In this document: one piece after another, positions 5,481 to 37,425 of the stretch
Numbering within the stretch: the first letter of the stretch is position 1
Layout: the number at the start of each line of letters is the position of its first letter
Assembly (NCBI GenBank): GCA_963737905.1
Contig: CAVTUQ010000029.1
Span: forward strand, 1-64,000
DNA length: 64,000 bases
Reading direction: 5' to 3'
DNA from: an uncultured delta proteobacterium
GTDB taxonomy: Bacteria; Desulfobacterota; Binatia; UBA9968
The notes under the pieces: generated by a model
The model's input: the letters and a program-made list of their open reading frames with translations, nothing else
Database searches by the model: none
What the model was told of the DNA's origin: nothing
Position numbers and translations under genes: made by a program

Positions 5481-6047
5481 TTAACGAGTTTCTTTAGACG
5501 CCCCCTTGAGCTGTTCGCCCGTTGTTTGCACCATCTCTAAATGTTTCTTGATTATCGGAGCATATTTTCCGGCAAACTGCTTGAGGTCGGGGTCTTTTGC
5601 CTTGTCGGCTTCGCGCTCGAACACTTTCAGGTCCTCTTTATGATCCTCGATCATCGTTCGGGTATATTGACGGTCGAACTCAGAGCCCGAGAGCTTCGAA
5701 AGGCGATCGACGGTTTTCTTTTGTTTCCCTTCAAGTGTCATCGGGATCTTTACCCCTTTATTGGCGGCAATGGCCTTTAATTCCTCATTGGCTTTGCCGT
5801 GATCCTCCTGCATCTGCCGGCCGAAAGCTTTGACTTTATCATTCGTCGACTTGTCAGCAGCGATCTTTCCTAGCTCCACCTCCATCATTCCTCCGGCGGC
5901 CGCCTCTTTGACGAACTTTTCGTCCGAGCTCGACAGCTTGTCAGTCGTTTTCTTCGGCTCACTCTGATCAGCGGCTAAGACGAGGCCCGCCGGTAAGCTC
6001 ACCACGAGACCGAAAATTAAAACTTGAACAAATGGTTTTGTGAACAT
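5481..6047 (-). CDS. DUF4142 exported ferritin-like protein
   Basis: Signal peptide; DEKFVKEAAAGGMMEVELGK, DHGKANEEL, FDRQY...DHKED. Confidence 0.88.
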   Translation of the reverse strand: MFTKPFVQVLIFGLVVSLPAGLVLAADQSEPKKTTDKLSSSDEKFVKEAAAGGMMEVELGKIAADKSTNDKVKAFGRQMQEDHGKANEELKAIAANKGVKIPMTLEGKQKKTVDRLSKLSGSEFDRQYTRTMIEDHKEDLKVFEREADKAKDPDLKQFAGKYAPIIKKHLEMVQTTGEQLKGASKETR

Positions 6048-6087
6048 TGTTTTTCTCCTTGCATTTAGAAACTACTTCGTATTGTGC

Positions 6088-6102
6088 GCAAACCTTATGC
6101 CA
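6088..6102 (-). promoter_or_regulatory. Sigma-54 -24/-12 promoter (DUF4142)
   Basis: TGGCAT-AAGGT-TTGC. Confidence 0.75.
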
Positions 6103-6418
6103 GGGAAGTGAGAGTTGAGGTACTTAAAAAATCTTGTGTTACGAGAGGCAGAGTGGCAATTCCTCTCGCATTACCGTCAGAAATTGCGCACAGAGCATCA
6201 GGATTCTTGCCACACCTTTCAATAGAATCTTTCCTCGAACACCCGTCAAAAAACGCCGACCTTCATAGTCAGGTTTCAAGCGCAAGGAAAAATACTGCCG
6301 GACTAGCTATCGTTCGGACTATCGTTCCGGAACGAAATCTAGGGGTTGCCTGCGATGTCGTGCGAGAAATGGCGCCATGAGTTGAGGCGCCATTTGTCGT
6401 TTAAAGGGTTGGGGGTTC

Positions 6419-6583
6419 TCACTTTCCGCAGTCAGGGTGACCGCAGCCACAGTTCCCCTCCCCTGTCAATGGCTCCGCGCTAGCGCAATGGTTATTGCAA
6501 TACATTTCGTTGCCGCGGGAAACCGCTTTTCCTTCCTCGACTTTGCAGCCGCAGCCTGAATGAGCGCAATCTTTCGTCGCCAT
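6419..6583 (-). CDS. Prokaryotic metallothionein-like protein (54 aa, 8 Cys, 3 His)
   Basis: CAHSGCGC...YCNNHCA...CGCGHPDC; AAAGGAG RBS. Confidence 0.82.
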   Translation of the reverse strand: MATKDCAHSGCGCKVEEGKAVSRGNEMYCNNHCASAEPLTGEGNCGCGHPDCGK

Positions 6584-6614
6584 AATTCGATCTCCTTTCT
6601 GGTGTGACAGTCGA

Positions 6615-6629
6615 GCAAGTATCATGCCT
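6615..6629 (-). promoter_or_regulatory. Sigma-54 promoter (metallothionein)
   Basis: AGGCAT-GATAC-TTGC. Confidence 0.7.
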
Positions 6630-6812
6630 CTAAATCCGCATGGCTGCTTCGGTGGCGCTGTACAAGAAATCGCCGCTGCCCGTAAAGCAGCGCGCACACG
6701 CGCGCGGCGTGGATATATTCAACCGCCCTTCCGGCGTTCTCAGAACTGGGAGCGCCGGGTTTTCCCGTTTTCTCAAAGAAAGTTGAATACCACTCCAAGG
6801 GCTTTAACAATT

Positions 6813-7241
6813 TTACCGCCGGTCCTCGTGAGTCGAATGGATTTCGCTCCCGATATATCCAATCCATTCTCCGCGTGTTGCCGCAATCGGATGAAGCTTG
6901 AAGCTAACGTCGGACTGATCTTCGTCATCCATACTCTTCGGGATCGACAAAACGAGTACTCCATTTCCGTAAGTTGCATTGGTCAACTTGCCGTTTAAAC
7001 CCCGATTAAGTGAGATTTCCCGGTGGTACGGGCCAATAGTCCACTCATCCATGATGAGATCGGTTCCATGCTGGCGCGGGCCGCGCTCTTCGCCACTGAT
7101 GAGAATTTTGTTATTGGCAATTGTTACCGAGATGTCTTCGGGTTCAAGCCCCGGAAGTGGAGCTGCCAAAACAATCAGTTGCCCGCGATCGTAAACACGT
7201 ACGGGAATAGTCTGGGAATCGCCTATCATGATTACCTCCAT
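6813..7241 (-). CDS. Hsp20/alpha-crystallin small heat-shock protein
   Basis: LPGLEPEDISVTI...ATYGNGVLVLSIPK. Confidence 0.88.
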   Translation of the reverse strand: MEVIMIGDSQTIPVRVYDRGQLIVLAAPLPGLEPEDISVTIANNKILISGEERGPRQHGTDLIMDEWTIGPYHREISLNRGLNGKLTNATYGNGVLVLSIPKSMDDEDQSDVSFKLHPIAATRGEWIGYIGSEIHSTHEDRR

Positions 7242-7319: not shown

Positions 7320-7334
7320 GCAACAATGATGCCA
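7320..7334 (-). promoter_or_regulatory. Sigma-54 promoter (Hsp20)
   Basis: TGGCAT-CATTG-TTGC. Confidence 0.72.
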
Positions 7335-7407: not shown

Positions 7408-8352
7408 CTATCTGACTTGCGGTCGGCTTCGTCTCTCTGGCGGTGGCGATTCTCTCTTTTGCGTTTCCCGAGCGGCAGAAATTGTCTCGGCGTTTTCCGC
7501 CGGCACAACTCCCGATCCGTACTGGCTTGCGTAGACTTGGGTAAACTCTGCTCCCAAGAAAAATATTAACGATGAGTAGTAAACCCACAGCAAAATCGTA
7601 ATCAATGAGCCGGCGGCGCCATAGACTGAAGTCACCCCGCTACTGCCTAGATATAGTCCTATTAAAAACTTGCCTACTGTGAAAAGAAATGAGGTCAGCC
7701 CGGCGCCGATCCACACGTCCTTCCACTGAATACGAGCGTCTGGAAGAAATTTGTAGATTATTGCAAAAAGCGCCGTTACGAAGCCAAAAGAGATCAAGAG
7801 GTCCAGAGCATGGGCGATGAGCGCGGCTTCGCCGAGCAACGTACCCATTATCTGCGTCAGGCTCGTTAGCAATGCGCTAATCACGAGTGAAACCAGGAGA
7901 AGAAAGCCAATCGCCAGAACCATCCCAAATGAGATGAAGCGCTGGCGGACAAAAGTCCAGATGCCTTGACCGGGTTTCGGGACCACGCCCCAAATCGTAT
8001 TGAGCGAGGTCTGTAGCTGGCCAACCACGCCGCCCGCACCCACCATTAAGGCAACAATTCCGAACAATCCGGAAATCATTCCTGTCTCCGGCTTGCTGCT
8101 AGCGTTTTGGATCATCTCTTGGACGGCCTGTGCGCTATCTCGACCGATCAATCCTTGGATCGTTTGGACTATCTGGTTTTGTGCCGCTTCCTTGCCGAAA
8201 ACGAAGCCGGCGATGGCAATAGCGATGATCAGGAGCGGAGCGAGGGAGAAAACGGTGTAATAGGAAAGCGCGGCCGCTAACTGGAACGGCTCATCCTCAA
8301 TCCATTGGGTAATGGTGTCTTTGAGGAATTGCCAAATCGATTTTGGCCTCAT
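7408..8352 (-). CDS. YihY/BrkB membrane protein
   Basis: AAALSYYTVFSLAPLL, YGAAGSL..LLWVYYSS...GAE. Confidence 0.92.
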   Translation of the reverse strand: MRPKSIWQFLKDTITQWIEDEPFQLAAALSYYTVFSLAPLLIIAIAIAGFVFGKEAAQNQIVQTIQGLIGRDSAQAVQEMIQNASSKPETGMISGLFGIVALMVGAGGVVGQLQTSLNTIWGVVPKPGQGIWTFVRQRFISFGMVLAIGFLLLVSLVISALLTSLTQIMGTLLGEAALIAHALDLLISFGFVTALFAIIYKFLPDARIQWKDVWIGAGLTSFLFTVGKFLIGLYLGSSGVTSVYGAAGSLITILLWVYYSSLIFFLGAEFTQVYASQYGSGVVPAENAETISAARETQKRESPPPERRSRPQVR

Positions 8353-8489: not shown

Positions 8490-9623
8490 CTAAGAGAGCG
8501 GTCTGGTCGCCAGTCTGATCATCCGCTGTTTTGATCGAGTTGAAATCTGTTTTGGGCGAGGAATCTGTGAATCCGCTCCTTCTTGTGCCGGCTCGATCCC
8601 GATGGTTACTGGCTGGTGAGACGCAAGGCCGTTCAGACGCCCGACATGTCCTGTTCTTCGCAAAACCTCCATGACGCGGCTCTCTGTCCCCCAATCGCTC
8701 CAGAGCACATCTCGCACGCGTATGGCCAGCAGGCTAAACGGGTGGGTTTGAACATAGGGCTCGAGTAACTCCTTTGAGAAATTTACCGGAGCCAAGTGCT
8801 GATATGTTTCCCGCAGCACGTCTTTTTCGCCCGGGGTGCCGACAGCCTCATAAATTTTTTGAAATGTAAGATACAGATTGGGCGCGACCTCAGAGGCGAG
8901 GCGGAGAAGGGTCTCGGCTTGACAGACCATTATCATCGTATTCCACAATGCGCCGTTAAGAATGAGGTCTCGCGCTTTTCCAGGATCGGGTTTTTCTATA
9001 AAAGCGGACACCGGAGCTGGACCTGCTGCTTCTTTCAACATTTTTTCCGGTAGAATGTAACCATACTCCGAGTCTTCCCGATCCGGCTCGATACCCAAGA
9101 GCACCAATCGGGATGGGTTTCCCTTGACGTACTGATGCGCGTGATGCACATAGCGCATCAGTTTTTCCTCTTCTAAGACGAAATGGTCGGAGGGGAGAAT
9201 GGCCACCACTGCGTTGGGATAATGCTTCGTTAAATAAATGAGAGGAAGAAGCAGTCCGGGCCCCGTTTCCCTATTCTGCGGTTGCACGACCAACGTTTGC
9301 GCCGGCCGCTTCCAAATCTGTCGTTGAACCTCTGGAAAGCCAAGATGGGCCTCATTGATCACCGTGAACAGGCGCTCGGAAGGTATCAGTCTTTCCGCTC
9401 GATTAAGAGTATGTTCCAACATGGAACGGCTTCCGATGAAGTTGACATACTGCTTGGGCAGTAGATCCTTCCTCAATAAATGGACGAACGGGCGAAGCCG
9501 TTTTCCTTCCCCTCCCGCCAATACGATTCCGCAAAGCGGAATGCTGGAAGTGAGATTGGACCGGTCAAAGGTAAGTACTTTTTTGTGGGTGTTTTCTAAA
9601 GCCATTCCTCGATGCCAGCTCAT
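8490..9623 (-). CDS. Sugar-phosphate nucleotidyltransferase (mannose-1-P guanylyltransferase-like)
   Basis: LAGGEGKRL, PKQY, QPQNRETGP, PSDH, FIEKP, WSDWG. Confidence 0.85.
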   Translation of the reverse strand: MSWHRGMALENTHKKVLTFDRSNLTSSIPLCGIVLAGGEGKRLRPFVHLLRKDLLPKQYVNFIGSRSMLEHTLNRAERLIPSERLFTVINEAHLGFPEVQRQIWKRPAQTLVVQPQNRETGPGLLLPLIYLTKHYPNAVVAILPSDHFVLEEEKLMRYVHHAHQYVKGNPSRLVLLGIEPDREDSEYGYILPEKMLKEAAGPAPVSAFIEKPDPGKARDLILNGALWNTMIMVCQAETLLRLASEVAPNLYLTFQKIYEAVGTPGEKDVLRETYQHLAPVNFSKELLEPYVQTHPFSLLAIRVRDVLWSDWGTESRVMEVLRRTGHVGRLNGLASHQPVTIGIEPAQEGADSQIPRPKQISTRSKQRMIRLATRPLS

Positions 9624-9726: not shown

Positions 9727-9741
9727 ACAAAGTCTGTGCCA
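9727..9741 (-). promoter_or_regulatory. Sigma-54-like promoter (nucleotidyltransferase)
   Basis: TGGCAC-AGACT-TTGT (GT instead of GC at -12). Confidence 0.55.
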
Positions 9742-9945: not shown

Positions 9946-11062
9946 TCAGGCCGAGGCGCCTTCGACGTGAATCAGCTGAGATTTGGCTACGGGGGGCCGG
10001 TGTTTTTCTTGCTGCACCGTCGGGCGCTTTCTGATCGGTGTCGTTTTCAGCTTTACTGGCTTCCCGGTTTCGGACGCGCGGTAGAGCGCGCGAACAATGC
10101 GGACGTCTGCCAGCCCCTCCTCTCCAGATGGTTCCGGCTCGATATTTTTCCGGATGCAATCCGAAAAATAGAGTAGCTCAGAGGCAAATTGATCGCGTCG
10201 CGCGAAAGTGCGGGCGGTGGTCTTATCGCCGATGGTAACGTACATCTTTAGCGCCATAGCGTACTCAAAGGCAGGATCTAAGCGCAGTTTTCCCTTGGTT
10301 CCAACAATTTCATAAGAGGCGACATCGGCAGATCCGAAGCTGGTGGTGAAGCTTGCGATCCGCTGTGCAGGAAATCGAAGGACCGCAGACGTCATCTCAT
10401 CTATTTCCTTGAATCGGCGATCGTTGCGTGCGGCGGCACAAGCGAAGGCTTCCACGGGCTCGTTCTGGAAAAGATTGCGCGCAGCATTGATGCAATAGAT
10501 GCCGAGATCATAGAGGGTTCCGCCCCCCAGATCGGCCTGAGTCCGGATGTTTCCCTCTTTAACCTGTAGTCCAAAAACCGAGCTGAAAATGCGGGGCTCG
10601 CCCAGTTTGCCGGCTTTCACGATCTCGATCGCCCTCAAATTGGCCTCTTCAAAATGAAGCCGGTAGGCAATCATCAGCTTGATCTTGTGCTTCTGTGCGG
10701 CGCGGATCATTGCTTGACATTCCCGTTCGGTGACAGCCATGGGCTTTTCACACAAGACGTGGACGCCAGCCTGCGCCGCTCGAATCGAGTATTCTGCGTG
10801 CATGCTGTTGGGGAGCGCGATATATACGGCATCGACGTCGCCGCTCCGCAGACAGTCGTCGTAATGTTTATAGGGATAGGTAAGTTTGACGCCGTAACGA
10901 TGGCCAAGTTGCCTCCAATTTCTCGGAATCGTCAGACACTAATGCGGTAAGTTTGGAATTCCGCGCCGCATGGGCAAAAGCCGGCAGCACGGCAACTTGA
11001 GCAATGTGTCCCAGACCGACAATCGCGTAGCGAATTTTGGCTAACTTTTTATTTTTGGCCAT
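9946..11062 (-). CDS. Gfo/Idh/MocA oxidoreductase (frameshifted ~10860-10920)
   Basis: IRYAIVGLGHIAQ in 10868-11062; HVLCEKPMA and GGGTLYDLGIYC in 9946-10803. Confidence 0.88.
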
Positions 11063-11091: not shown

Positions 11092-11106
11092 GCAAGGAAG
11101 ATACCA
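11092..11106 (-). promoter_or_regulatory. Sigma-54 promoter (Gfo oxidoreductase)
   Basis: TGGTAT-CTTCC-TTGC. Confidence 0.68.
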
Positions 11107-11234: not shown

Positions 11235-11249
11235 TGGCACAGCTCTTGC
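11235..11249 (+). promoter_or_regulatory. Sigma-54 promoter (DUF748)
   Basis: TGGCAC-AGCTC-TTGC. Confidence 0.78.
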
Positions 11250-11326: not shown

Positions 11327-12934
11327 ATGGCATTCAGAAACGTCGATTCCTATTTTAGCAAGCTCGTCGAGCGAAGATCCGTTCTTTGGATAGGGGCATC
11401 AATTTCGGTGATCCTGATTCTTATCTTTGCGGCAGCCTTCCTTCTTGACGAGCCCTTGCGAAAGAAGATGGAAGCGGACATCAATAAGAGCCTGAAAGGC
11501 TACAGCGTCCGCATCGGGCACCTCGACTTCCACCCCATCGGGCTTTCACTCGATCTCGAAGATTCGACGATTTATCAAACTGCTCATCCCGATCCCCCGG
11601 TCGTGCACATACCCAGTCTGAGCGCGAGCATTCACTGGAAAGCCTTGTTGCATGGGCGTCTCGTGGCTGATTTTGAGCTGGACGATCCAACTCTACGATT
11701 CGATCTCAGCCAGTTTAGTCAAGAAGCCCAGGATAAGACTCCGATCAAAGAAAAAGGATGGCAGGATGCCGTGCGGGCGATTTATCCCCTTAAAATTAAT
11801 CGATTTGTGATTCGGAACGCCGACATCACTTACATCGACAAAGGGCCATTCCGACCACTGCAGCTCACGAAAGTTAATTTTCTCGCCGAAAACATTCGAA
11901 ATGTCGAGTCAGAGGAAGGAACTTACCCGTCACCCGTCGAATTGGCCGGCGTTGTATTTGATACCGGCAGATTGGAGCTAAAGGGCAATGCCGACTTTCT
12001 TGCCGAGCCTCATCTGACTTTCGAGGCCGATTTCCAAATCGAAAATATCGCTCTTGATTATTTCAAGCCGATCAGTGAACGATACAATTCTTCAGTGCGT
12101 AAGGGGGTGCTTTCTGCCGCAGGCTCGGCTGAATATACTCCTGACGTTACCAGACTGAACATTCAAAAAGTGAGTCTGAACGGGGTTGAGGCGGACTATA
12201 TTTATGACGCGCCGGGCGCGCCCGTGAAAGAGACCGCAAGTAAGGTTGGCAAAACCGCAAGAAAATACAGCAACGAACCGACCTTGGAGCTTAAGGTCAA
12301 CGAAGTGGAAGTGCGCAAGAGCCAGCTCGGATATGTCAATCGAGCGGCAAAACCTCCCTACCGGGTTTTTTTAAGTGATACAACTTTAGCGATAGAGAAT
12401 TTCAGTAACCACCTGGAAGACGGCGTCGCCCGCGGGAAAGCCCAGGCGAAATTCATGGGAAGCGGATCGACTTTGATTGACTTCGCTTTTCGTCCGGAGA
12501 ATAAAGGGCCTGATTTTAATCTAGCGCTCCGCATCGAGGACACGGACATGCGAACAATGAATGATCTTTTCCGCGCTTACGGCAATTTTGACGTTACCGC
12601 CGGGGTGTTTTCGTTTTATTCGGAAATCAAAGTTCGGCAGGGAAAGATCGAGGGTTATGTCAAGCCTCTCTTCCGCGACATGAAAGTCTATGATGAACGC
12701 CAGGATCGCGAGAAAAGTTTGTTCCGGAAACTCTATGAGGGACTTGTCGGCGGCATTGCGGGTTTGTTGCAAAACCGACCGCGCGAAGAAGTGGCAACGG
12801 AAACGTCGGTTTCCGGAGACATAGAAAAACCTGAAACCAGCACCTTCGAAACGGTAGTGCGGCTAGTTCAAAATGCGTTCTTTAAAGCAATCCTTCCCGG
12901 GTTCGAAAAGGAAATCTCCCAGCATTCCAACTAA
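11327..12934 (+). CDS. DUF748/AsmA-like membrane-anchored protein
   Basis: N-terminal TM helix, beta-rich body, MNDLFRAYGNFDV, GYVKPLF, LVQNAFFKAI. Confidence 0.75.
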   Translation: MAFRNVDSYFSKLVERRSVLWIGASISVILILIFAAAFLLDEPLRKKMEADINKSLKGYSVRIGHLDFHPIGLSLDLEDSTIYQTAHPDPPVVHIPSLSASIHWKALLHGRLVADFELDDPTLRFDLSQFSQEAQDKTPIKEKGWQDAVRAIYPLKINRFVIRNADITYIDKGPFRPLQLTKVNFLAENIRNVESEEGTYPSPVELAGVVFDTGRLELKGNADFLAEPHLTFEADFQIENIALDYFKPISERYNSSVRKGVLSAAGSAEYTPDVTRLNIQKVSLNGVEADYIYDAPGAPVKETASKVGKTARKYSNEPTLELKVNEVEVRKSQLGYVNRAAKPPYRVFLSDTTLAIENFSNHLEDGVARGKAQAKFMGSGSTLIDFAFRPENKGPDFNLALRIEDTDMRTMNDLFRAYGNFDVTAGVFSFYSEIKVRQGKIEGYVKPLFRDMKVYDERQDREKSLFRKLYEGLVGGIAGLLQNRPREEVATETSVSGDIEKPETSTFETVVRLVQNAFFKAILPGFEKEISQHSN

Positions 12935-13560: not shown

Positions 13561-14694
13561 CTATTGGCGTCGACCTCGGACCATCTTAGGGCTCGGATCC
13601 TCCACCTCCAGCCAGCGAATCACAGTTGTCGTTAAGGCCACGGTGACCAGATCGAGCGGTTTGGCGCGCATAAAGTGATCGTTGCCTAGATCAGCCAGGG
13701 TCACACTGCGAGGCAGAATCATATCGGCTAGTAAGGACACGCCATCGTTTGGTCCGTACTTGCTGAGAATGGAAAAGCCTCTGTGCGCCCACAGCGACAT
13801 GCTGCCGGTGAGAGGAACGCCGAGGTAATTGACCACCAGCACATGCTCGGGAATGCGGAAAGAATTGAAACGTTGGCGACTGCGGCTGGTCGTCAAGCTT
13901 TCCTTGCCCGCCACGTCCACGTTTCCCACGAGAAATTCCAATTCCCGGAAAAGGTGTTCATTCACCAGCGGGGTACCCTGAAGCACACCGACGACGTTGA
14001 TCCATGCTGCGACATGGGCTGTCTTAGCCGGCCCCAGGCGCGTCAGGGCTAGCGCGACTTCCGAACCCGCTTTGCTGGCACTGACGATGATCAGCCGACG
14101 GCTGCTCAAGGCGCGATCCTGGATCGCAGCTGCCACCAGGTTGGCATTGGTTTCGATGGCACCATCGTCCTGAGTTTCGACGAAGTGGCATGGGATGCCC
14201 AGGCTTTGAAGTGCCTCCCGCGGAGCGGCCAAATCCGCGCCCGCGCCAGGAAGCCGAGCATAGAGGTAGATGGGTACAAACAGCGCCTCATAACGCGCCG
14301 CCGTTATGGGGAGTTCCGCCCCTTGGGGAGAAGCTTTCCGAGTAGCATCATAAGCCTGATCAAAAGCGTTTCGAAAACGACGATTGACGGGCACGCGAAC
14401 GATATGGTCGGCCAAGTATAAAGACGCAAAATCAACCGAGAATTCTTCGGTCAATTGCTTGAGCTGGTCCCGATCCGGAAGCTTCTGGTCAGCACTCCGG
14501 TCTGCGCGATCGATACGGTCGTTGAGAGCCGCATCGGTGACTTCTCCCGCCAGATAGTTTTCTACATAGTAACGCGCCGCCTCCGAGTCGACCCGGGTCT
14601 GTATGGTTTGCATCCCAACCTGGCCTTGCACTGGCACGCCGGCGCAGCTCCACGTCATGACCAACACAACCCCCCAGGCGCCAAGCCAACACAA
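13561..14694 (-). CDS. Putative alpha/beta-hydrolase-fold lipoprotein
   Basis: WSC lipobox-like motif, SASKAG nucleophile elbow, LQGTPL, PNDG, DH. Confidence 0.6.
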   Translation of the reverse strand: MCWLGAWGVVLVMTWSCAGVPVQGQVGMQTIQTRVDSEAARYYVENYLAGEVTDAALNDRIDRADRSADQKLPDRDQLKQLTEEFSVDFASLYLADHIVRVPVNRRFRNAFDQAYDATRKASPQGAELPITAARYEALFVPIYLYARLPGAGADLAAPREALQSLGIPCHFVETQDDGAIETNANLVAAAIQDRALSSRRLIIVSASKAGSEVALALTRLGPAKTAHVAAWINVVGVLQGTPLVNEHLFRELEFLVGNVDVAGKESLTTSRSRQRFNSFRIPEHVLVVNYLGVPLTGSMSLWAHRGFSILSKYGPNDGVSLLADMILPRSVTLADLGNDHFMRAKPLDLVTVALTTTVIRWLEVEDPSPKMVRGRRQ

Positions 14695-15618: not shown

Positions 15619-15633
15619 GCAAAACGTATTCCA
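15619..15633 (-). promoter_or_regulatory. Sigma-54 promoter (SYLF operon)
   Basis: TGGAAT-ACGTT-TTGC. Confidence 0.62.
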
Positions 15634-21152: not shown

Positions 21153-21167
21153 GCAATATTAACCCCA
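21153..21167 (-). promoter_or_regulatory. Weak sigma-54-like promoter (cheB operon)
   Basis: TGGGGT-TAATA-TTGC. Confidence 0.4.
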
Positions 21168-21424: not shown

Positions 21425-21439
21425 TGGCACATGCTTTGC
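21425..21439 (+). promoter_or_regulatory. Sigma-54 promoter (peptidoglycan-binding protein)
   Basis: TGGCAC-ATGCT-TTGC. Confidence 0.8.
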
Positions 21440-22229: not shown

Positions 22230-22276
22230 GCCAAAAGAGAGAGGGAAGCTAATTCTCTCTCTCTCTCTCTTTTGGC
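22230..22276 (+). terminator. Intrinsic terminator-like hairpin
   Basis: GCCAAAAGAGAGAG ... CTCTCTCTTTTGGC. Confidence 0.6.
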
Positions 22277-23208: not shown

Positions 23209-23223
23209 TGGCATCTGGGTTGC
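23209..23223 (+). promoter_or_regulatory. Sigma-54 promoter (DUF2892-like gene)
   Basis: TGGCAT-CTGGG-TTGC. Confidence 0.7.
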
Positions 23224-26956: not shown

Positions 26957-27002
26957 GGATCGATAGCTAACTGTTTTATAGTCGGCGCCGAGCGCAGATT
27001 AT

Positions 27003-27022
27003 TACTGAAATTACTTTCAGTA
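27003..27022. promoter_or_regulatory. Putative LexA (SOS) box upstream of dnaE2
   Basis: Palindrome TACTG-AAATTACTTT-CAGTA between TTGCTA and TAATAA-like promoter elements. Confidence 0.6.
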
Positions 27023-27081
27023 GCAAGCTCCCCGGCGTGCCTCCAACGCAAGGACTAGTTTGACTTTCTAACCACTATTTC

Positions 27082-29224
27082 TCATTGCTTGTCTCCCCGG
27101 GGCCAATAGCGTAGCTGTCGGCAGTCTGTAATGAACGCTGAACAATCCGCCGGCTTTTTGAGCGCAATGAATCCCTCATCGCGACTATCGGAAACACCAG
27201 CCTTTTCAAAGAGAGGCGTCGCTGCCTCGACGTAGCCGATGAACTTATGATGGGCAAACGCGTCGGCGACAAAATCGCGCGCGGCTGCATTGTTAGCCAA
27301 AGCCGTCGCGCCTTGGTTCGAAGGCAACAGCGCCACGGCGTCATAAAGGATGGATGGCCCGCCATCGATCCTTTGCGCCGCTTCGATCCAAGAACCGTCG
27401 CTGGCCTTGACCCCTCCAATCTTGGGGGCGACGAATTCAATCATCGCGCCTTCCTTTTTCAAGGCGGTTTGAAGTGATTTCAGCATCGCGATATCCACAC
27501 CATCGGTCACCAGGGCGCCCATTTTGCGGCCTTTAAAACTCTTCGGGCCATTGAGGACGATGCTCAAGGCGGACGATTTCTTCAGATCCTCCCGCGTCGG
27601 CTTTGCGGCGTCTGCCGGTTTGGGCATCTCTTTGAGACGCAATCCGTCCGCCACTTTGTTTGCGAGTTCCGTGTGTATATTCAAGAGGTGCGATACCATG
27701 CGGGCTCGAATTTCAAGCCGTTCAACTTTGCTGAGCTCAAACACGAGCGCGCCCACCAGATGGCTTTGCTCCGTCTCCGTCTGGCTGATGTAAAACTGCC
27801 GTGCCTGGCTATAGTGGTCGGCGAAAGTCTCTGAACGGACGCGGAGTTTCTGTCCCCCTTCCTCGGCGGGGTACGACTGAAAACCCTTTTCGGGCGATTC
27901 GCGTGGACCAGCGGCCTCGCCATTCCACGAATTCGGCTCATAGTTGGCTCGACCTTTGGGATTCATCATAGCCATGTGGCCGTCTTGCTGAAAGAAGTGA
28001 AAGGGACACTTGGGCGCATTGATGGGAATATGCGTGAAGTTGGGGCCACCGAGCCGTTTGAGTTGCGTATCGAGGTACGAGAAATTGCGACCCTGAAGTA
28101 GCGGATCGTTTGTAAAATCTATTCCCGGCACGATATTCTGCGTGCAAAAGGCGACCTGCTCGGTCTCGGCAAAAAAATTCTCCACACAACGATCGAGCAC
28201 GAGCCGGCCGACCCGGCGCACTGGAACCTCCTCTTCCGGGATGATCTTGGTGGCATCGAGCACATCGAAGTCGAAACGCTCGGCAAAGTCCTCATCGAAG
28301 AGCTGCAAACCTAGCTCCCACTCCGGGTAGTCGCCCATCTGGATCGCGTTCCACAGATCCCGGCGATGAAAATCTGGATCAGCGCCATTGATCTTTACCG
28401 CTTCATTCCACACCACGGATTGCAGGCCGAGTTTCGGTTTCCAATGAAACTTGACGAAGGTCGCCTTCCCGTCGGCGTTGATGAAGCGGAACGTATGGAC
28501 GCCGAAACCTTCCATGAATCGGAAGGAGCGCGGAATCGTGCGATCCGACATGATCCACATCACCATATTCATGCTTTCCGGCGTCAGGGAAATGAAATCC
28601 CAGAAGTTATCATGCGCCGTCTGCGCCTGCGGAAAGTCTCGATCCGGTTCCGCTTTGGCCGCATGGATAATGTCGGGAAACTTGATGGCGTCCTGAATGA
28701 AGAATACTGGAATGTTATTCCCGACGATGTCCCAGTTGCCCTCTTTAGTATAAATTTTTACCGCGAATCCGCGCACGTCTCGCGCCAGATCAGCCGAGCC
28801 TTTGTTGCCGGCCACCGTAGAGAAACGGACAAAGACAGGAGTCTTTTCCCCGGCTCGCTGAAAGAGATCGGCCTTCGTAACATCGGACAGGGACTTGTAA
28901 TTCTCAAAATAGCCATGCGCTCCAAAACCGCGAGCGTGAACGACACGCTCAGGTATGCGCTCGTGATCAAAGTGGAAAATCTTTTCGCGAAAATGAAAGT
29001 CTTCAAGCGCCGTCGGCCCGCGGACGCCGACCCGGAGAGAGTTCTGGTCGTCTGCTACGGGAACGCCTTGTTGCGTCGTCAATATGGGTGTGTTGGCCTC
29101 CAGCCGTTTGGTGGGTTTCCCCGCCCGCTCCGCTGGTTATAATCTGGTCGGCGTATCGAATCTTTTTTCGGTCGCTATCGCCTCGGCTTCTCATGTTATT
29201 GGATGTGGCGCGTTTCTTTTTCAT
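27082..29224 (-). CDS. katE: Large-subunit catalase HPII (frameshifted ~29090)
   Basis: [33 protein letters not shown]-terminal DJ-1-like domain. Confidence 0.95.
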
Positions 29225-29368: not shown

Positions 29369-29383
29369 GCAACATTTATGCCA
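29369..29383 (-). promoter_or_regulatory. Sigma-54 promoter (katE)
   Basis: TGGCAT-AAATG-TTGC. Confidence 0.72.
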
Positions 29384-29764
29384 TTAAGCCGGCGAACCTA
29401 TTGTCGAACAAGTATCGGTGACTTTGTGGCTGTCTCGCAGGGCACGAGAACGAGCAAAATTAGTTGAGAGCAACGCCGAGGTTGAGGGTCGGCCAATCGA
29501 GAAGCTTGATATGATGATGACAAAAGGATCGATGAAAGATATTAGCCGTAGCGCAACATGATCCTCATTAATCGACGAATCGATGATCTCAAAGCCGCGG
29601 AGCCACATGGACGACGCATTCGAGTAAAGCGTGAAGTCGGAAATTTCCTGTCTGGTGTGCTTTTTCTGAGATAGTTTTGTATAGAAAAGTGGTACAAGAT
29701 GATCTCGCCTTAACCCATTTCACAAAGGCTCGATCGTTGCTATTGTTGTCGTGTTAATGCTTCT

Positions 29765-29779
29765 CGGCATAAAGCTTGC
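29765..29779 (+). promoter_or_regulatory. Sigma-54 promoter (hypothetical gene at 29846)
   Basis: CGGCAT-AAAGC-TTGC. Confidence 0.68.
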
Positions 29780-29845: not shown

Positions 29846-30290
29846 ATGTTCATTGAGACCTATTGCGATGAGCGGTTGACGTTTCCTAGTGGGCAGGTGA
29901 GCGAGTCATTCCCTATCCCGAGCTAAAGGGAGAGGAGTTGAGGGTTTGGCAAAAATATCTGCCAGTGCGAACAGAAATACAAAGCGTCCCTTCTGGTTGC
30001 GTGATAATATGCCTCGCCTTGCCCTGGAGCAGATCGAGAAGGCACAAAAGGCGCCGGGTTTGTTCGATCACATCGAGATATGGAGCCGCTCGGACGATCC
30101 GATGGCGGTTGGCATTACCGGTATAGAGCCGCGTTACTTTTCTATCGTACGCTGGGGCGATGCCAAACTCACACTGGATCAGGTGAAACACAAATTAAGG
30201 ATAGAAAAATGGATGTTCCGGCTGACCCCGGTGGCAATGATCCCTATGTTTTTGGCCGCGATATTCTTTCTGACCACGCATACTGGCTAA
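29846..30290 (+). CDS. Hypothetical protein with C-terminal TM helix (frameshifted near its 5' end)
   Basis: AAGGAG RBS and ATG at 29846; continues in ORF 29946-30290. Confidence 0.55.
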
Positions 30291-30704: not shown

Positions 30705-31076
30705 TCAGTCCTGCCCCAACGCCGAATCTGTGGAGAGGCGGCCTTCATCCATTATTTGTTTTAGGATATCGCGGGCTTGTTCTAGCAACGTGCGCTTGAT
30801 AGCCGTGAGGGGATATTCCACACCGACGATAAGCGTAAGGGCAACGTTCACCCCCTCAAGTCCCGAGTGGGGTCGCCCCGATACCGGAGATGCTTCCTTA
30901 CGGCGGAGCTCACCAATCAAACGGTCTCGGAGCCGGACCATGTCGCGCTGGATCTGATCGACCTCTTGCTCAACCTCTCTTGCTGGAAGGTTTGTCGCTC
31001 GATCAAGCTTCTCAATCAGCTCCTGGCATTGCGTAGGTAGGGAGATCTCTTGGTGTGATCCTATCATAGGAGTCAT
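30705..31076 (-). CDS. Hypothetical helical protein in the FDH operon
   Basis: Start overlaps the nrfD stop (ATGA); LRDRLI...VNVALTLIVGVEYP. Confidence 0.6.
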   Translation of the reverse strand: MTPMIGSHQEISLPTQCQELIEKLDRATNLPAREVEQEVDQIQRDMVRLRDRLIGELRRKEASPVSGRPHSGLEGVNVALTLIVGVEYPLTAIKRTLLEQARDILKQIMDEGRLSTDSALGQD

Positions 31077-32061
31077 CTTGGCTGGGTCGTGTGAAAATAG
31101 TCTTCCGGACGCTTTGCTGATTCTTTCCCGGCTTGAAGGATAACCGAACGGAGTAAATACCCACCGGCCAATGTCGCAATCGCTGCCACCATCGCCCAGC
31201 GGTCGGAGCGCCGCTTCATCATATGATTGAGGCCGTGCACGACTAGAGGAAAAAGCAAGCCTACGCCTTGATAGCCGATGCGATAAGCGCTTGCGACCGG
31301 CTCTTGTTTCATAGGTCCCGCTAGGTTTTCTCGCTCCCATTGCCGTTCCAGTCCGTTGCTTACAATGATCTCCGCAGCGCCCGTGATCATCGCGAATTTT
31401 TCTAAACGGCGTCTCGTCTCTTCGGGCGCGCCGTTTATTTCGGCGGCGATTGAAAGTATCGAGCAGACGTTGCCGCCGCCGAGATCCCGAAGAGTGCGGG
31501 CAACCAGCGACTGGCGCGCGCCCAAAGCGGTGTGCTGGTCGCACCGAGCAAAGTTCCGGTATAGGTCGCTACGACCATACCCGCGGCTGTAGCAGGCAGC
31601 GCTGCGGCGCGCGCGGCGTGCCGGTAAAAAGGCTTCCTTAACCGATCGGCGAGAAACTGCAGAGCCGCAGTTATCGCGCTGAAGGTCCCAAAGCCAGCAA
31701 GTGTCCACGAACCGATCGACATAGCCGATGTTCGGCGAAAAATCCGTAGCATGTTGTACCAACGTTCGGGGGTGTGGAGATCGGCGATCAGGAAGGCGGG
31801 GCCGGCGACCGCACCCCCAAGTGCCAGATAACGGCCGGCGCGAACAACGGAGCTGCTTTTTTCGCCACCGCTGAGATCGGCGATGGTAGCGATCATTTGA
31901 CTGGCGCCGGCGACTCCGCCGATGAACAGATAGGTCGCAACGAGCTGACCGTAGTGGCTCGGGTTGAGAACCGGTTGCTCGTAGTAGGTTTGACCTTGGT
32001 ACGGGGCGGGGACGCCTTGGTGCCGTCCATAGGGCGCGCGCTCGATGGGTTGAGTCTGCAT
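31073..32061 (-). CDS. NrfD/PsrC-family membrane anchor (frameshifted ~31450)
   Basis: YLFIGGVAG, LIADLHTPERWYNML, SAMSIGSW, YTGTLLGATSTPLW. Confidence 0.88.
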
Positions 32062-32079: not shown

Positions 32080-32985
32080 CTATCTGTGGCTGCCAGTGAA
32101 GGCGACCATGGCTGCCAACGCCAGGCCCGCCATAGTCGCCAGCCCGCTTAACAAGCTCGGTAAAATCTGTTTCGACGGCAAGCTCGGCGCGGGCGGCAGG
32201 TTGTAGACCTCCGGACGATCCGTGAGCAAGAAAAAAGCATTTAGTTGGTTGATTCCGCCTGTCGCACCGGGTGAATCGGGCGCGCCGTAAAGGTAGGCAT
32301 CATTTCTACCCTGGGCGCGCAGGCTATCGACGCGCTTGCGCGCTCGGTCGTGCAGCGTGGACAGCTCTCCGAACTGGATCGAATCGGTGGGGCAAGCCTT
32401 GGCGCAAGCCGGTTCAAGCCCGCCCTTTAAGCGGTCGTAACACAGCGTGCATTTATGCGCCTTGCCGTCGGGCACATTCACCTCGACGACTCCAAAGGGG
32501 CACGCCGGGACGCAATAGCCGCAACCGTTGCAGATATCCTGCTGGACCACGACCGTGTCGAACTCGGTGCGAAACAACGCGCCCGTGGGGCAGGCTTCGA
32601 GGCAGGGCGCCGGGGAACAGTGCTTGCACACATCGCTCATCATCAGCCAGTTGCTTTGAAACGGTTGGAGCGCCGTGGCCCGGTTGCCGTCGCTCTTTCT
32701 TAGCTTTTCTAGGAACGTGACGTGGCGCCAGGTTGTCGCCGAAAGCCCCCCGGTATTGTCGTAGCTATGACCGCTGAGCTTGAACTCTTCCGCCGGCAAC
32801 GCATTCCATTCTTTACAGGCGACTTCACAGGCTTTGCATCCGATGCAGAGCGATGTGTCGGTGAAAAAACCATAACTACGGCCGGGTTCGATGCGTGACG
32901 CCTGCAGTCAACTCGGCTTCCTGCGGATCGACTGCCTGGCAAGGATCGATTCGGTGTAATCCAAAGCGCGTGGGGTAAATGTCAT
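32080..32985 (-). CDS. Formate dehydrogenase 4Fe-4S beta subunit (indels near its 5' end)
   Basis: FFTDTSLCIGCKACEVACKEWN, CKHC...CLEACP, CNGCGYCVPACP, KCTLCYDR..PACAKACP. Confidence 0.9.
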
Positions 32986-32989
32986 GCTG

Positions 32990-35900
32990 TTATAACCTCT
33001 CATTCATCATGGTCCCGTTCGTCGTTTTACGTTTCACTCGTCCCTTGCGCAAATTGCAGGTGAACGCTTTGCCTTCGTGAATCGTGGTGTTTGGATCACC
33101 GACGATCGCTGATAGCACATTCGCAATGTCGCCGGTCGCGTACCCTTGCCAGCCAAAGTGCCAGGGCATGCCGATCTGATAGACGCGCCGGCCGTTGATT
33201 TCGAATGGCCGCAGGCGATCCGTCACAAGCGCGCGTGTTTCAATCTCGCCACGCGCAGTGGAGATCACAATCCAATCCAGGCTCCGCGATCCCTTTTTCG
33301 TCCGCTAGCTCCGGTGGGATCTCGGCGAAGCCTTCGGGTTGCAACTCGGCGAGGGTTGGTACGAACCGTGTCGGTATCGCGCCGGAATGATGTTCGGTCA
33401 AACGGTACGTCGTAATAACGTACGGGTAATCGAGGATCGCCGACCTTGTGGTAGACGTTGTCCGGCCGCGGCCACTTGCGGGTCGGCGGATTGTCTTGTT
33501 GCTTGTACATCGGATTCGCACCGGCGACTCGACGGGCTCATAGTGCGTCGGCAGCGGCGCGTCCTTCAATCCTGATGGAACGAATAGCCACGCTTTGCCA
33601 TCGGCCGACATCATAAACGGCGATTTGCCGTCGTGCGCATCGTTGCCCAATAATGGGCCCGTGGCAAAATCGGGATTGGTAGTCAGGAGACTTGCTCGAG
33701 GAAAAATCAGGCTTGTCTTTTCCGACCCACTCTTTCTTTTCCGCATCCCACCACAGGTAGCGTTTGCGCTCCGACCACGGTTGCCCGTGGGTATCGGCGG
33801 AAGCCCGGTTGTACATGATGCGCCGATTGCTCGGCCAGGCGAACGCCCAATTCAAGATGAGTGCCCGGACCATCCGGTGGGTCGGGTTGTCGCGACCTGG
33901 AATGATTGAAATCATTTCGCGGGTAAACGCCCGTGTAGATCCAGACGCCACAGGCTGTCGAGCCGTCGTTTTTTAATTCTTTGAAATCGTCGATCTGCAT
34001 GTCGATCTGGCCAGGTATAGCCGTTCATCTCTTTCAAAATCGCGTCGGCCGATGGTTCGTCGTTCGGACCCTTCGTCGGGTAGTCCCACGTTATATTCCT
34101 GATCGGATCGTCCTTGGCGTCGGTACTGTTCGCGTAAAGTTTTTTCAACCGGTTGCCCAAATGGAACATGAACCAGAGGTCCGACCTGCAGTCGGCTGGC
34201 GGTTCGACGATTTTCTCGTGCCACTGGATCAGCCGCTGGGTATTGGTGAACGATCCTTCCTTCTCCCCGGGCAATGCCGCCGGCATTAAAAAGATCTCCG
34301 TTTTGATTGCTTCGGGAGGGAGGAGGGTGACTTGCGGCGATTTGTACCAAAACGACGCGGTTTCGTTTTCAAATGTTTCGCGCACGACCATCCATTCGAG
34401 GTTCGCAAGGGCTTTGCGCACGAGACGACTATTGTGTCCGCCGACCACCGGATTTTGGCCGATCAGATAGTAGACCCCGGATGACGCCGTCGGCGATCGC
34501 CAGCATCATCGGCTCCTGGGAATGATCGCCAATGATCTTCGGAACCCATTGGTAACCCCACTCATTCTGCGGAGTTGCTACATCGCCGTACCAGGCGCGC
34601 ATCAGGCTAATCATGTATTTGGGAAAGTTGTGCCACCATCCGGTGGGCGGCGTTTCGACCTCGAGGTATCGATCAAGCGATTTATGCGGCTTCATAGCGC
34701 TCGGCTGCGGCAGATAACCCGGGAGCAGGTTGTAGAGCGTCGGAACATCGGTACTGCCTTGAATGCTGCAATGACCGCGAAGCGCCAGGATACCGCCACC
34801 TGGCCGGCCGATGTTTCCCAGTAAGGATTGGATGATCGCAGCCGCGCGGATCATCTGAACTCCGGTCGTGTGGTGAGTCCAGCCGACCGCGTAGCACCAG
34901 GCGCCGGTCCGATCGCGCCCGGAGTTTTTCAAGAGCGCTTCCGCGATGTTTAAGAAGGTTTCCTTGGGACATCCGGTGACTCGCTCGACCATTTCAGGCG
35001 TGTAGGCCGAATAATGGGCTTTGAGGATCTGGTACACGCACTTCGGATCTATCAATGTCGGATCGCATGGCGGCGGCCGGCGCGTCAGTTCCTGCTGCTT
35101 CTTGATCATCTTTTCCGGATCATCCGTGCTCGGATGCACGTACGCTTCAGCGAGTGTCGCGGGAATATCCATGCCGCGGTACTGCCACGAATCCACGTTG
35201 TAGGAAAGCGTCTCTGCCTCCCATCCGGAAAATAATCCGTCGAGCTCGCTGGCATCCTTGAAGTCGTCCTCGATGATCGTCGCGATGTTCGTGTAGTTGA
35301 GCGCGTACTCTTTGAAGAAGGGGTCGTTGTGCCAGCGCTCACTGTCGAGAATGTAGTGGATGATGCCGCCGAGAAAAGCGATGTCGCTGCCGGCGCGCAA
35401 GGGAGCATAGATATCGCATAGCGCTGAGGTGCGGGTGAATCGCGGATCGACGTGAATAATCGTGGCGCCTTTCTCCTTGGCCTGCATGACGAACCGAAAA
35501 GCGATCGGGTGGTTTTCGGCCATATTGGAGCCCATGATCATGACGCAATCGGCATTCGCCAGATCCCATTGCGACGTCGTTGCCGCCCCGCGACCGAAAG
35601 TGGCGCCCAAACTGGGCACCGATGAGCTGTGTCAGACCCGCGCCTGGTTTTCTATCCAGACCATTCCCAGAGCGCCGCCGCAGAATTTTTTGATCAGATA
35701 ATTTTCTTCGTTGTCGAGGGTAGCGCCTCCGAGCTCTGCGACAGCTAAAGTATGATTCACTTGGGTTCCGTCCGGCAGCTGGCGCACAAAGGTTTCATCG
35801 CGGGTACGCTTGACCAAATACGCGATGCGGTCCATCGCCCATTCCAGCGGGCGTTCCTCCCAGTGATCGGAATAGGGCGCGCGATATTTCACTTTGGTAA

Positions 35901-36225
35901 GCCGGTTCGGGTTGAGCATCCAGCCGAGAGTCGCCGCCCCTTTGGGACAGAGCGTTCCCTGGTTGATCGGGCTGCGGGGATCCCCTTCGATATGGATAAC
36001 CTCGTTCCCCTTGGCATATATTAGCTGCGCGCAGCCCACAGCGCAGTACGGGCAGATGCTCGTGCCGACCCGATCGGCCTCTTCCAAACGGGGCCGCAGC
36101 GTACGGGACTGAGTGGATTCTGCTGCGGTGCTCTTTGGATCTTGCCCGGCCAGTTGCCGCGGTATCGACCATTCATGCAGAACGCCTCGCAATCGCTCGC
36201 CGACACTTGCTAGTTTAGCTGACAT
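32990..36225 (-). CDS. Selenocysteine formate dehydrogenase alpha subunit (FdnG-like, several frameshifts)
   Basis: CPYCAVGC, LCPKG, NQARV-TGA-HSSSVPSLGATFGRG, GWTHH, LRGH, TTYRLTEHH. Confidence 0.92.
35602..35634 (-). promoter_or_regulatory. In-frame Sec UGA codon (35632-35634) with bacterial SECIS hairpin
   Basis: TGA-11 nt-GGTGCCCA GTT TGGGCGCC stem-loop with G first in the loop. Confidence 0.85.
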
Positions 36226-36490
36226 GTTTTTCCTCCGGTTTAAGCTTATCCATCTGTTGGACAGCGCACGCTATGCCGGAGGCTTGGTTTGCTTCTCCCG
36301 CAAACCATACCCGCACGCGTGCGCGCGTGCGCTTGAGCTGAATTAGACCGCTAACGTCAACAGGTGCTTTACGTCCGAGGAGCAAAATCAAGCTCCGGCC
36401 GTCGTCCAGTATCAGACGAAACCGTTGTTCCTGAACTAGATTTATGTATCCTGTGACCGCCGTATACGCTGGAATCAGATTGTGAGACAT
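36215..36490 (-). CDS. Hypothetical protein leading the FDH operon
   Basis: GYINLVQEQRFRLILDDGRSL; stop overlaps the FDH alpha start. Confidence 0.65.
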   Translation of the reverse strand: MSHNLIPAYTAVTGYINLVQEQRFRLILDDGRSLILLLGRKAPVDVSGLIQLKRTRARVRVWFAGEANQASGIACAVQQMDKLKPEEKHVS

Positions 36491-36523
36491 GTGCTTCGTC
36501 GATTGGACCTGCAATTGGACGGA

Positions 36524-36538
36524 GCAAGGCAGGTGCCA
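36524..36538 (-). promoter_or_regulatory. Sigma-54 promoter (FDH operon)
   Basis: TGGCAC-CTGCC-TTGC. Confidence 0.78.
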
Positions 36539-36750
36539 AATATTCGGCTCTTACGAAACGTTTGTCAGTCGACTATCAGAGGATCTCTGTATCGACTATT
36601 GCTCGGTGGGATCCTCGAAGCGAGTGATCGTCGATGGCGCGTTCGTCGAGTATGTCGGATGACCTGTACTGATTTGGCTTTCAATTGGCCTCTCTATCTG
36701 AGAAAAATCCGTACAAAAAATCCCGTTGAGATGGAATCTATCGCGCCGTC

Positions 36751-37353
36751 TCATCGGTAGAAAACGTGTTTTCCGATCTCCACAGTACGTCTGTGCTCTT
36801 TGGCCCAAGCTGGCGTCAGCTCCACCGAATGAAAGAACAAAGCGCCACCGGTTGGATCGATTGGAGGGTTCTTCAGGAGCTGTGCGGCGACTTCCCGTGC
36901 TTCCTTCCAGGCGTCGGCGTTGTGCGGTGTATCAGACTGGCCGTCGCACCAGTATGAAAATTGGCACGGTGACTTTTCACCTCCCTGCCGTACCACTTCA
37001 CAGGCTGTGTCCGGGAAGTTTGGATTCTTCATTCGATTCAAAACCACCCACCCAACGGCCTCCATCGCCGCACGCCCCTGAGCACGCGCTTCCCAGTAAA
37101 CTGTCAAGGCGAGACAGCGAATCTCATCAGACTGCCTCTCCGTAGCTATGAGGTTCGATTGGCGACCTATCGGCATCAGATATAAGGCCAGGCTCATAGC
37201 GATCGCTAGCAGGAACCGTCCGATACTCTGAATGTTAAAAGCACCCAAGCGCTTAGCTCTCGAATTATTCGACCAGCAAAAATTAGGCAATTCATGTGCC
37301 ATTATATGAGTGGGCATGCCCCTGTTCTTTCCGCTAGCAGGGCCGCGCACCAA
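36751..37353 (-). CDS. SleB/CwlJ-like cell wall hydrolase (Hydrolase_2); true start may be downstream
   Basis: CLALTVYWEARAQ..AVGWVVLNR..FP..CEVVRQ..CQFS..DPTGGALFFH..IGKHVFYR. Confidence 0.88.
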   Translation of the reverse strand: MVRGPASGKNRGMPTHIMAHELPNFCWSNNSRAKRLGAFNIQSIGRFLLAIAMSLALYLMPIGRQSNLIATERQSDEIRCLALTVYWEARAQGRAAMEAVGWVVLNRMKNPNFPDTACEVVRQGGEKSPCQFSYWCDGQSDTPHNADAWKEAREVAAQLLKNPPIDPTGGALFFHSVELTPAWAKEHRRTVEIGKHVFYR

Positions 37354-37410
37354 ACATCCCGAGATCGGTGATTTTCAGCAATGCCTTGCCCGTCCAGCGC
37401 CAACAACTTT

Positions 37411-37425
37411 GCAAGCACAGTTCCC
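37411..37425 (-). promoter_or_regulatory. Sigma-54-like promoter (cell wall hydrolase)
   Basis: GGGAAC-TGTGC-TTGC. Confidence 0.55.

Follow-up and report, generated by a model that had tools for sequence, protein, structure and literature searches.

A 32-kb island of stress and cell-envelope genes preceded by putative sigma-54 promoters in a Binatia-like bacterium, with the same motif in related loci of Acidobacteriota

The DNA analyzed here is a stretch of 64,000 nucleotides (nt) from an uncultured delta proteobacterium of the Binatia (contig CAVTUQ010000029.1 of assembly GCA_963737905.1, positions 1 to 64,000), which is called the window in the following. Labels of similar proteins fit this placement tentatively: of the named proteins with 81-89% identity to the CoA-transferase of the window, three are labelled Candidatus Binatia and one (81%) Candidatus Acidoferrales; for the DUF748 protein, two with 71-72% identity carry the name Binatia and one with 70% Candidatus Udaeobacter; and the Atlas cluster nearest to a 377-aa protein of the window consists mostly of Candidatus Binatota. 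Genes were called from a listing of open reading frames (ORFs) and from Pfam and NCBIfam scans, with Pfam being run on 86 ORFs. An island of genes extends from 5.4 to 37.4 kb. Its first part codes for a DUF4142 protein, a metallothionein-like protein, Hsp20, a nucleotidyltransferase together with BrkB/YihY, a Gfo/Idh/MocA oxidoreductase, a DUF748 protein and SYLF/Ysc84. The rest of the island comprises a CheB/CheR-PAS/kinase/regulator module, a PG_binding_1 protein, CsbD, a YgaP-like (DUF2892) protein, an error-prone polymerase of the DnaE2 type, a SleB-like Hydrolase_2 protein, a formate dehydrogenase and catalase HPII. With KatE, CsbD, Hsp20, DUF4142 and BrkB/YihY, the window holds a gene content of the general-stress type. 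These five, as well as Dps, BON, DUF892, DUF1328, PsiE, superoxide dismutase (SOD) and Ku, are members of general stress regulons elsewhere. An initial annotation, made from the sequence alone, had listed the same gene content and had proposed that these genes form a clustered stress or resting-state programme run through RpoN (sigma-54).

The holoenzyme of sigma-54 binds promoters of the -24/-12 type as a closed complex, which stays silent until an ATP-driven AAA+ protein, the bacterial enhancer-binding protein (bEBP), remodels it. Sites of this type were scored with the pattern TGGCAYN5TTGCW, which has 11 defined positions and in which the GG and the GC were held fixed; sites matching at 10 or 11 of the 11 positions are called strong. 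The whole window contains 104 sites of at least 8/11, with 14 at exactly 9/11 and 12 in the strong class. All 12 strong sites are located within 6087-37301, and no site of at least 10/11 was found in 1-6 kb or in 37.4-64 kb, in agreement with the initial annotation, which had seen none in 41-64 kb. Each strong site is intergenic, has the same orientation as its gene and ends 29-178 nt before the start codon (30-180 bp had been claimed), and a GGAG-type ribosome-binding site lies ahead of most of the start codons downstream.

The exact 15-mer TGGCAY-N5-TTGC occurs 8 times in the window compared with 0.23 expected occurrences, and at least 8 occurrences were reached in 0 of 100 shuffles. First-order Markov simulations (n = 100) gave 2.66 ± 1.72 sites of the strong class with a maximum of 7, so that the 12 real ones were reached in none of them. 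What speaks for matches by mere chance is found in the more relaxed classes: with up to one mismatch allowed to the 15-mer there are 14 matches versus 8.1 expected, a number reached in 5 of 100 shuffles, so that this class alone is not enriched, and the 14 sites of 9/11 look like noise because they are dispersed over the window (5 within the island span, 9 outside). Nevertheless, five of the six one-mismatch members lie in intergenic regions of the island in the correct orientation; the sixth one (52586) is antisense within a gene and lacks the GC. Together with the intergenic position and the co-orientation of all 12 strong sites and the conservation of the motif in 10 of 23 orthologous loci, described below, the enrichment refutes a chance origin, whose remaining probability is negligible.

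The first site, TGGCATAAGGTTTGC (6088..6102, reverse strand), lies 40 nt ahead of the ATG of the DUF4142 gene (5481-6047), and the second one, AGGCATGATACTTGC (6615..6629, reverse strand), 31 nt ahead of the ATG at 6583 of the small metallothionein-like gene (6419-6583), whose product matches Pfam Metallothio_Pro below the curated cut-off (24.7 vs 33 bits). The Hsp20 gene (6813-7241) is preceded by TGGCATCATTGTTGC (7320..7334, reverse strand). The -24/-12-like sequence TGGCACAGACTTTGT (9727..9741, reverse strand), which carries GT and not GC at -12, is located 103 nt ahead of a unit consisting of the NTP_transferase gene (8490-9623), a 63-aa ORF and the BrkB/YihY gene (7408-8352). The nucleotidyltransferase shows a partial match to mannose-1-phosphate guanylyltransferase models. 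In the intergenic region that follows, TGGTATCTTCCTTGC (11092..11106, reverse strand) was found 29 nt ahead of the Gfo/Idh/MocA oxidoreductase gene (9946-11062, in two frames) and TGGCACAGCTCTTGC (11235..11249, forward strand) 77 nt ahead of the DUF748 gene (11327-12934); the latter site is the one with a counterpart in 10 of 23 related loci. A further site, TGGAATACGTTTTGC (15619..15633, reverse strand), is located 178 nt ahead of the SYLF/Ysc84 gene (14787-15440), which is followed by the gene for a 377-aa protein (13561-14694) without assigned family, for which alpha/beta-hydrolase is only a lead.

Upstream of the cheB gene there is a weak candidate, TGGGGTTAATATTGC (21153..21167, reverse strand), with TGGGGT at -24; it had been called weak before and indeed scores only 8/11. 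The unit behind it encodes CheB (20477-21109), CheR-PAS (18630-20480), a PAS-GAF histidine kinase (16503-18395) and a single-domain response regulator (16148-16519). In the part of the CheR-PAS gene that separates the methyltransferase from the second PAS domain there are nine tandem units of 21 nt (18993-19223). These units are 60-75% alike, show a seven-residue periodicity and probably encode a coiled-coil linker. On the forward strand, TGGCACATGCTTTGC (21425..21439) lies 39 nt ahead of the gene of the PG_binding_1 protein (21479-22213) and TGGCATCTGGGTTGC (23209..23223) 75 nt ahead of the ATG at 23299 of the YgaP-like/DUF2892 membrane protein gene, which extends to 23745.

The catalase HPII/KatE gene (27082-29224) is preceded by TGGCATAAATGTTGC (29369..29383, reverse strand), 144 nt ahead of the ATG at 29224. 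The DnaE2-type polymerase gene, which has no imuA or imuB neighbours, may be transcribed apart from the katE unit, since it has a sigma-70-like site of its own (TTGCTA-17-AATAAT, 26998-27026, reverse strand). On the other side of the katE site, CGGCATAAAGCTTGC (29765..29779, forward strand) lies ahead of a short ORF and a gene for a 114-aa hypothetical protein (29946-30290).

The formate dehydrogenase unit, located downstream of TGGCACCTGCCTTGC (36524..36538, reverse strand), consists of a 99-aa ORF (36215-36514), the FdnG-like alpha subunit (approximately 32990-36225), the Fe-S beta subunit (32080-32799) and an NrfD-like membrane subunit (30705-32061). The alpha subunit contains an in-frame TGA (35632-35634, reverse strand) within ENQARV*HSSSV, which we take to be the expected selenocysteine position of FdnG. 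An 8-bp hairpin begins 14 nt past this TGA, where a selenocysteine insertion sequence was looked for, but the fold of the 68-nt region is no better than those of shuffled sequences (z = -0.43). Finally, a perfect match, TGGCACATGAATTGC (37287..37301, reverse strand), was found 38 nt ahead of the TTG at 37248, which starts the signal-anchor-like N-terminus of the SleB-like cell-wall hydrolase gene (36751-37248). The promoter of this gene had been placed at 37411. The sequence there, GGGAACTGTGCTTGCA (37410-37425), lies further upstream of the gene and is a weaker match of 9/11 belonging to the dispersed class, so that a site for the SleB-like gene exists but at another position than claimed; the other 13 of the 14 coordinates listed in the initial annotation carry the motif as described.

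The motif is not a set of copies of a repeat element, as the flanks of the sites differ from each other and no site is contained in any of the 20 families of direct repeats shown (24 found). It could still be the site of another factor, an extracytoplasmic function (ECF)-type sigma factor or a transcription factor, that only resembles a -24/-12 promoter. The lack of rpoN in the window fits this explanation, as does the fact that the assignment to sigma-54 is based on sequence. However, the motif consists of two blocks 5 nt apart, the GG and GC doublets being spaced by exactly 10 nt in the 12 strong sites, which is the geometry and signature of sigma-54, whereas the spacer of ECF promoters measures 16-17 nt. 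The motif is also non-palindromic and always oriented with the gene, and the consensus TGGCAC-N5-TTGC is retained across phyla whose G+C content ranges from 54% to 73%. Another factor is therefore very improbable, and the reading as sigma-54 promoters is well supported by the sequence and by the conservation of the motif in other phyla. It is also favoured by the depletion of sigma-70-like consensus sites in 5-24 kb (4 vs 12.0 ± 3.5), although no such depletion was seen in 22-41.5 kb (10 vs 11.3 ± 3.0).

For the analysis of conservation, the DUF748 protein was chosen as probe because of its position in the middle of the island. It has thousands of homologs, which are 99% to 65% identical among the 120 matches listed. 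In a plasmid collection this protein gave only four distant matches with 23-28% identity, from Pseudoalteromonas and Catenovulum, which were not informative. A protein search of genome contigs yielded 23 loci with 44-52% identity, which are referred to by L and a number. In 10 of these 23 loci a site of at least 10/11 lies on the strand of the gene, 59-233 nt before the DUF748 match, as expected if the motif is conserved upstream of orthologs. Grouped by record title, all nine loci from Acidobacteriota/Thermoanaerobaculia and one of the two from Rokubacteria carry the motif, and the three loci L003, L009 and L013 do not. Overall, the ten positive loci have a density of roughly one site in 12 kb of strand, which means that the chance of a hit in a given 250-nt segment is approximately 0.02. 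The initial annotation had restricted the wiring to the lineage of the window; this scope was too narrow, as the wiring is common to Acidobacteriota and one metagenome-assembled genome (MAG) of Rokubacteria. Further sites in the related loci precede the genes of DUF4142, ferritin/Dps and DUF1328-BON (all in L012), BON (L020), a DUF892-like protein (L022) and CheB-CheR (L021) as well as AI-2E transporter units.

Genes of the window were also found near DUF748 by tblastn, with BrkB in L001, L003 and L005, KatE in L001, CsbD in L003, L004 and L010, DUF4142 in L012, the metallothionein-like gene in L018 and CheB/CheR in L021 and L022. In L001, L003, L005 and L010, which are Nitrospirota-labelled or unlabelled, DUF748 clusters with BrkB, KatE and CsbD in the absence of a site of at least 10/11, and the DUF748 neighbourhood of Nitrospirota appears to be under a different promoter type. 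Thus, the gene neighbourhood of DUF748 is widespread and its sigma-54 wiring is lineage-dependent. In addition, a tree of DUF748 was built from 33 rows, namely the window, each of the 23 loci and a hand-picked set of 9 protein matches that spans the identity range of the 120 listed. On this tree the motif label changes at least 3 times, with 2 changes forced by well-supported branches, compared with 8.2 changes in shuffles, and none of 500 shuffles was as low. The clade of the window stands apart from the rows of Acidobacteriota. Long branches are seen in three rows, and the tree is only midpoint-rooted, so that it gives no direction of gain or loss.

In the acidobacterial loci L012, L014, L015, L019, L020 and L021 a second, divergent -24/-12-like site (GGCCC at -24, 9/11) was observed before DUF748. 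It is located in the regions of approximately 9800-9892 in L014 and 9780-9847 in L021, and just upstream of the DUF748 site in L012, L015, L019 and L020. The gene that the divergent site faces is either small and conserved or codes for Dps/ferritin, which is shown by Pfam in L021 but unconfirmed in L014. In L014 the two divergent -24 elements, read by eye, are only about 10 nt apart, which leaves no room for an enhancer between them.

The left flank of the island contains a HigB/HTH toxin-antitoxin pair (372-1062) and an IS630-type transposase (3377-4378). The HigB/HTH pair is bracketed by direct repeats, 111 nt long with 94% identity and 50 nt long with 90% identity, which are located at 2-168 and 1194-1467. 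The right flank starts with a hybrid kinase, which is followed by many solute-binding proteins and catabolic enzymes. The regions 43083-53462 and 57315-63861 hold paralogous solute-binding genes, six of them NMT1/THI5-like or phosphonate-binding, together with three ABC_sub_bind ORFs, two of which make up the same split gene; next to this run lie a Rieske LigXa-like oxygenase and a family III CoA-transferase.

The transposase and the toxin-antitoxin pair could indicate a horizontally acquired or decaying island, with part of its genes being pseudogenes and its promoters relics. This would also fit the interrupted reading frames. The fdnG gene (32990-36225, reverse strand) shows five frame changes in its last third (near 34.48, 34.0, 33.9, 33.67 and 33.3 kb), and single ones were found in katE (29082-29224, near the N-terminus), gfo (10803-10868), dnaE2 (26624-26637) and the NrfD-like gene (31435-31544). 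However, short homopolymer runs are present at some of the five inspected fdnG junctions, the direction is identical for all frame changes traced (five in fdnG and one in katE), and an ABC_sub_bind gene outside the island (43083-44113) is split as well, at 43526-43529, which together suggests sequencing indels and not decay. The G+C content is flat over the window (0.50-0.59) without a shift in composition; no integrase and no tRNA as a target was found in the window (tRNA search: 0), and no repeat bounding the island is among the 20 families of direct repeats shown (24 found). The window further contained no Rfam family at gathering thresholds. As the DUF748 gene is moreover intact and its product 99% identical to database proteins, an acquired or decaying island is unlikely.

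Taking these data together, 12 strong and one or two weaker putative sigma-54 promoters precede nearly every unit between 5.4 and 37.4 kb. The stress and envelope genes of these approximately 13 units would by default be kept silent behind closed sigma-54 complexes, until a single bEBP or a small number of bEBPs, whose genes lie beyond the window, turns them on jointly. We assign this reading a probability of about 0.72. The motif is established with its enrichment, position, orientation and conservation before orthologs, while sigma-54 dependence itself, control by a single activator and a trigger by stress or dormancy are inferred; one general-stress or dormancy programme is plausible.

Several observations weigh against this reading. 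Neither rpoN nor an RpoN domain was found in the 64-kb window (Pfam on the 86 ORFs and a six-frame search for the RpoN-box motif), and no Sigma54_activat domain, GAFTGA or Walker A motif of a bEBP (Pfam and six-frame regular expressions); of the 23 related loci, only L009 and L016 have a bEBP gene in the neighbourhood. No common enhancer was detected among the promoters: with k-mers of 7-10 nt no 10-mer occurs in three or more of the 13 upstream regions, and among tens of thousands of 4-N-4 dyads tested, palindromic or general, the best one is present in 5 of 13 regions, with part of this signal coming from double counting of the shared intergenic region at 11.1-11.2 kb. Regarding the sites, the one ahead of cheB (21153) is weak and the one at 9727 lacks the GC at -12. 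The csbD gene (22346-22906), which had been counted among the stress set, is present in the island downstream of the PG_binding_1 gene but has no -24/-12 site of its own, and a strong terminator-like hairpin (22236-22264, forward strand) with (AG)n/(CT)n runs and a T-rich tail lies between the two genes. Several genes span more than one frame, so that some may be non-functional in this copy. Among the related loci, 13 of 23 lack a site of at least 10/11 before DUF748, including all six from Nitrospirota and all three from Desulfuromonadales (L011 has a site of 9/11). A matrix derived from the sites of the 10 relatives ranks only three island sites (11235, 36523 and 21425) at the top, followed by noise; it was dropped from further use because its G+C-rich spacer columns bring in this noise.

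As no enhancer is common to the 13 promoters, several unrelated activators are possible. The sigma-54 promoters would then be real but belong to independent bEBP circuits, for peroxide, metal, formate and envelope, which lie side by side and form no single programme. For sigma-54 control of a formate dehydrogenase, FhlA is a separate precedent. Known sigma-54 stress circuits are signal-specific, such as that of PexR for peroxide (PMC12754779). The tight clustering, with 12 strong sites in 32 kb and none in the other 32 kb of the window, does not fit separate circuits well, nor does the recurrence of the same mix of stress genes with the motif in acidobacterial loci. In L014 and L021 the divergent promoters stand back to back and leave little space for gene-specific enhancers, and no PexR site (CACCG-N6-CGGTG) lies upstream of katE, since none of the 56 window matches with up to 2 mismatches falls into 29384-29764. 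Overall, independent circuits are the strongest of the alternatives but clearly less probable than joint control. Given the back-to-back divergent promoters and the missing shared enhancer, the activator of a joint programme might act without a classical upstream site. What stands of the programme via RpoN proposed in the initial annotation are the sigma-54 motifs, which are enriched and conserved, whereas its unity can only be inferred, because the window contains neither rpoN nor a bEBP gene and the promoters share no enhancer.

The histidine kinase of the island has its best matches in AtoS and ZraS, two kinases that act with sigma-54-dependent regulators, and the receiver in the receivers of AtoC, NtrX and ZraR, with a margin that does not discriminate. 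Since these matches point to sigma-54 partners and such a module is also present close to DUF748 in L021 and L022, the module of CheB, CheR-PAS, histidine kinase and response regulator is proposed, speculatively, as the likeliest local sensor, which might feed a distant activator. In Myxococcus, the chemotaxis-like methylation module Che3-CrdA likewise feeds a sigma-54 activator. In the widest version of the joint programme, which we put forward only tentatively and consider doubtful at present, sigma-54 with a dedicated activator would be the master switch of general stress or the resting state in the Binatia-like lineage, in Acidobacteriota including Thermoanaerobaculia and in some Rokubacteria, where it would take the role of RpoS, SigB or EcfG, and the CheB/CheR-PAS-kinase-receiver module would be a methylation-tuned sensor.

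The overlap in genes with the regulons of RpoS (E. coli), SigB (Bacillus) and EcfG/PhyR (Alphaproteobacteria) concerns KatE, CsbD, small heat-shock and envelope proteins and, in the loci of the relatives, genes for Dps, BON/OsmY-like, DUF892/YciF-like, DUF1328, PsiE, SOD and Ku. These regulons depend on sigma-70-family factors under partner switching or proteolysis, whereas the promoter class found here is that of sigma-54, which would require an ATPase activator and allow tight off/on control. Enterobacteria have sigma-54 stress operons such as pspA with PspF, ibpB, rtcBA with RtcR and zraP with ZraR, and in addition fdhF with FhlA, which in E. coli is a precedent for a formate dehydrogenase selenoenzyme behind a sigma-54 promoter. 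They resemble the island in having such promoters before small heat-shock and envelope-stress genes and a selenocysteine formate dehydrogenase, but they occur as single operons at dispersed places, and every one of them has a dedicated activator. Moreover, FdhF is cytoplasmic, whereas the formate dehydrogenase of the island is FdnGHI-like with an NrfD-like membrane subunit.

The bEBP cascades of development and starvation in Myxococcus (Nla28, PMC9765219) are similar in running a resting-state programme via sigma-54 activators. They differ in being tied to fruiting-body development and in having other target genes, and no regulators of the myxobacterial type were seen in the island. Closest to the island is PexR of M. 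xanthus, a bEBP for katB and ahpC with -24/-12 promoters, which places a catalase and other oxidative-stress genes behind such promoters (PMC12754779). PexR homologs are reported in unclassified Acidobacteriota, Nitrospirota, Planctomycetota and Pseudomonadota, and PexR is described as controlling two or three operons with CACCG-N6-CGGTG repeats, its gene being located usually beside ahpC (PMC12754779). In contrast, about 13 units of mixed function are present here, the catalase is of the HPII/KatE type, katE has no PexR repeat upstream, and a GAF-AAA+ activator as expected near the catalase was not found, the window being free of bEBP genes.

Surveys of sigma-54 across phyla predicted -24/-12 promoters before cell-envelope genes and some stress genes in many phyla (Francke 2011, PMC3162934; Carrera-Reyna 2025, PMC12316311). 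Word searches in both gave no mention of Acidobacteri-, catalase or Hsp20, and one for CsbD in PMC12316311 alone gave none either; their supplements may hold relevant tables. A literature search of incomplete coverage gave no description of a sigma-54-driven cluster with such a gene content, with PexR being the nearest case. The initial annotation had not known the programme as a described system, which agrees with this search for the regulon as a whole, but a sigma-54-dependent catalase has been published for Myxococcus (PMC12754779). Hence, the control of stress genes by sigma-54 is already known, and according to the literature search the clustered wiring of such a gene set appears to be new.

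Acidobacteriota, Binatia-like bacteria and Rokubacteria dominate many soils, and we know of no general-stress regulator described for any of them. If the reading of the island as a joint sigma-54 programme is true, their stress and desiccation genes would be silent until an ATP-dependent activator fires, unlike in the competition among sigma-70-family factors. A motif of 15 nt would then allow the regulon to be predicted in MAGs, would give a basis for interpreting soil metatranscriptomes during drying and rewetting, and would open a route to the activator and its signal. The Nitrospirota cluster of DUF748, BrkB, KatE, CsbD and DUF4142 without the motif would serve as a natural comparison for the rewiring of a regulon between phyla. 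The presence of the same wiring in distant soil phyla suggests that these bacteria may run a stress programme by an unusual sigma factor.

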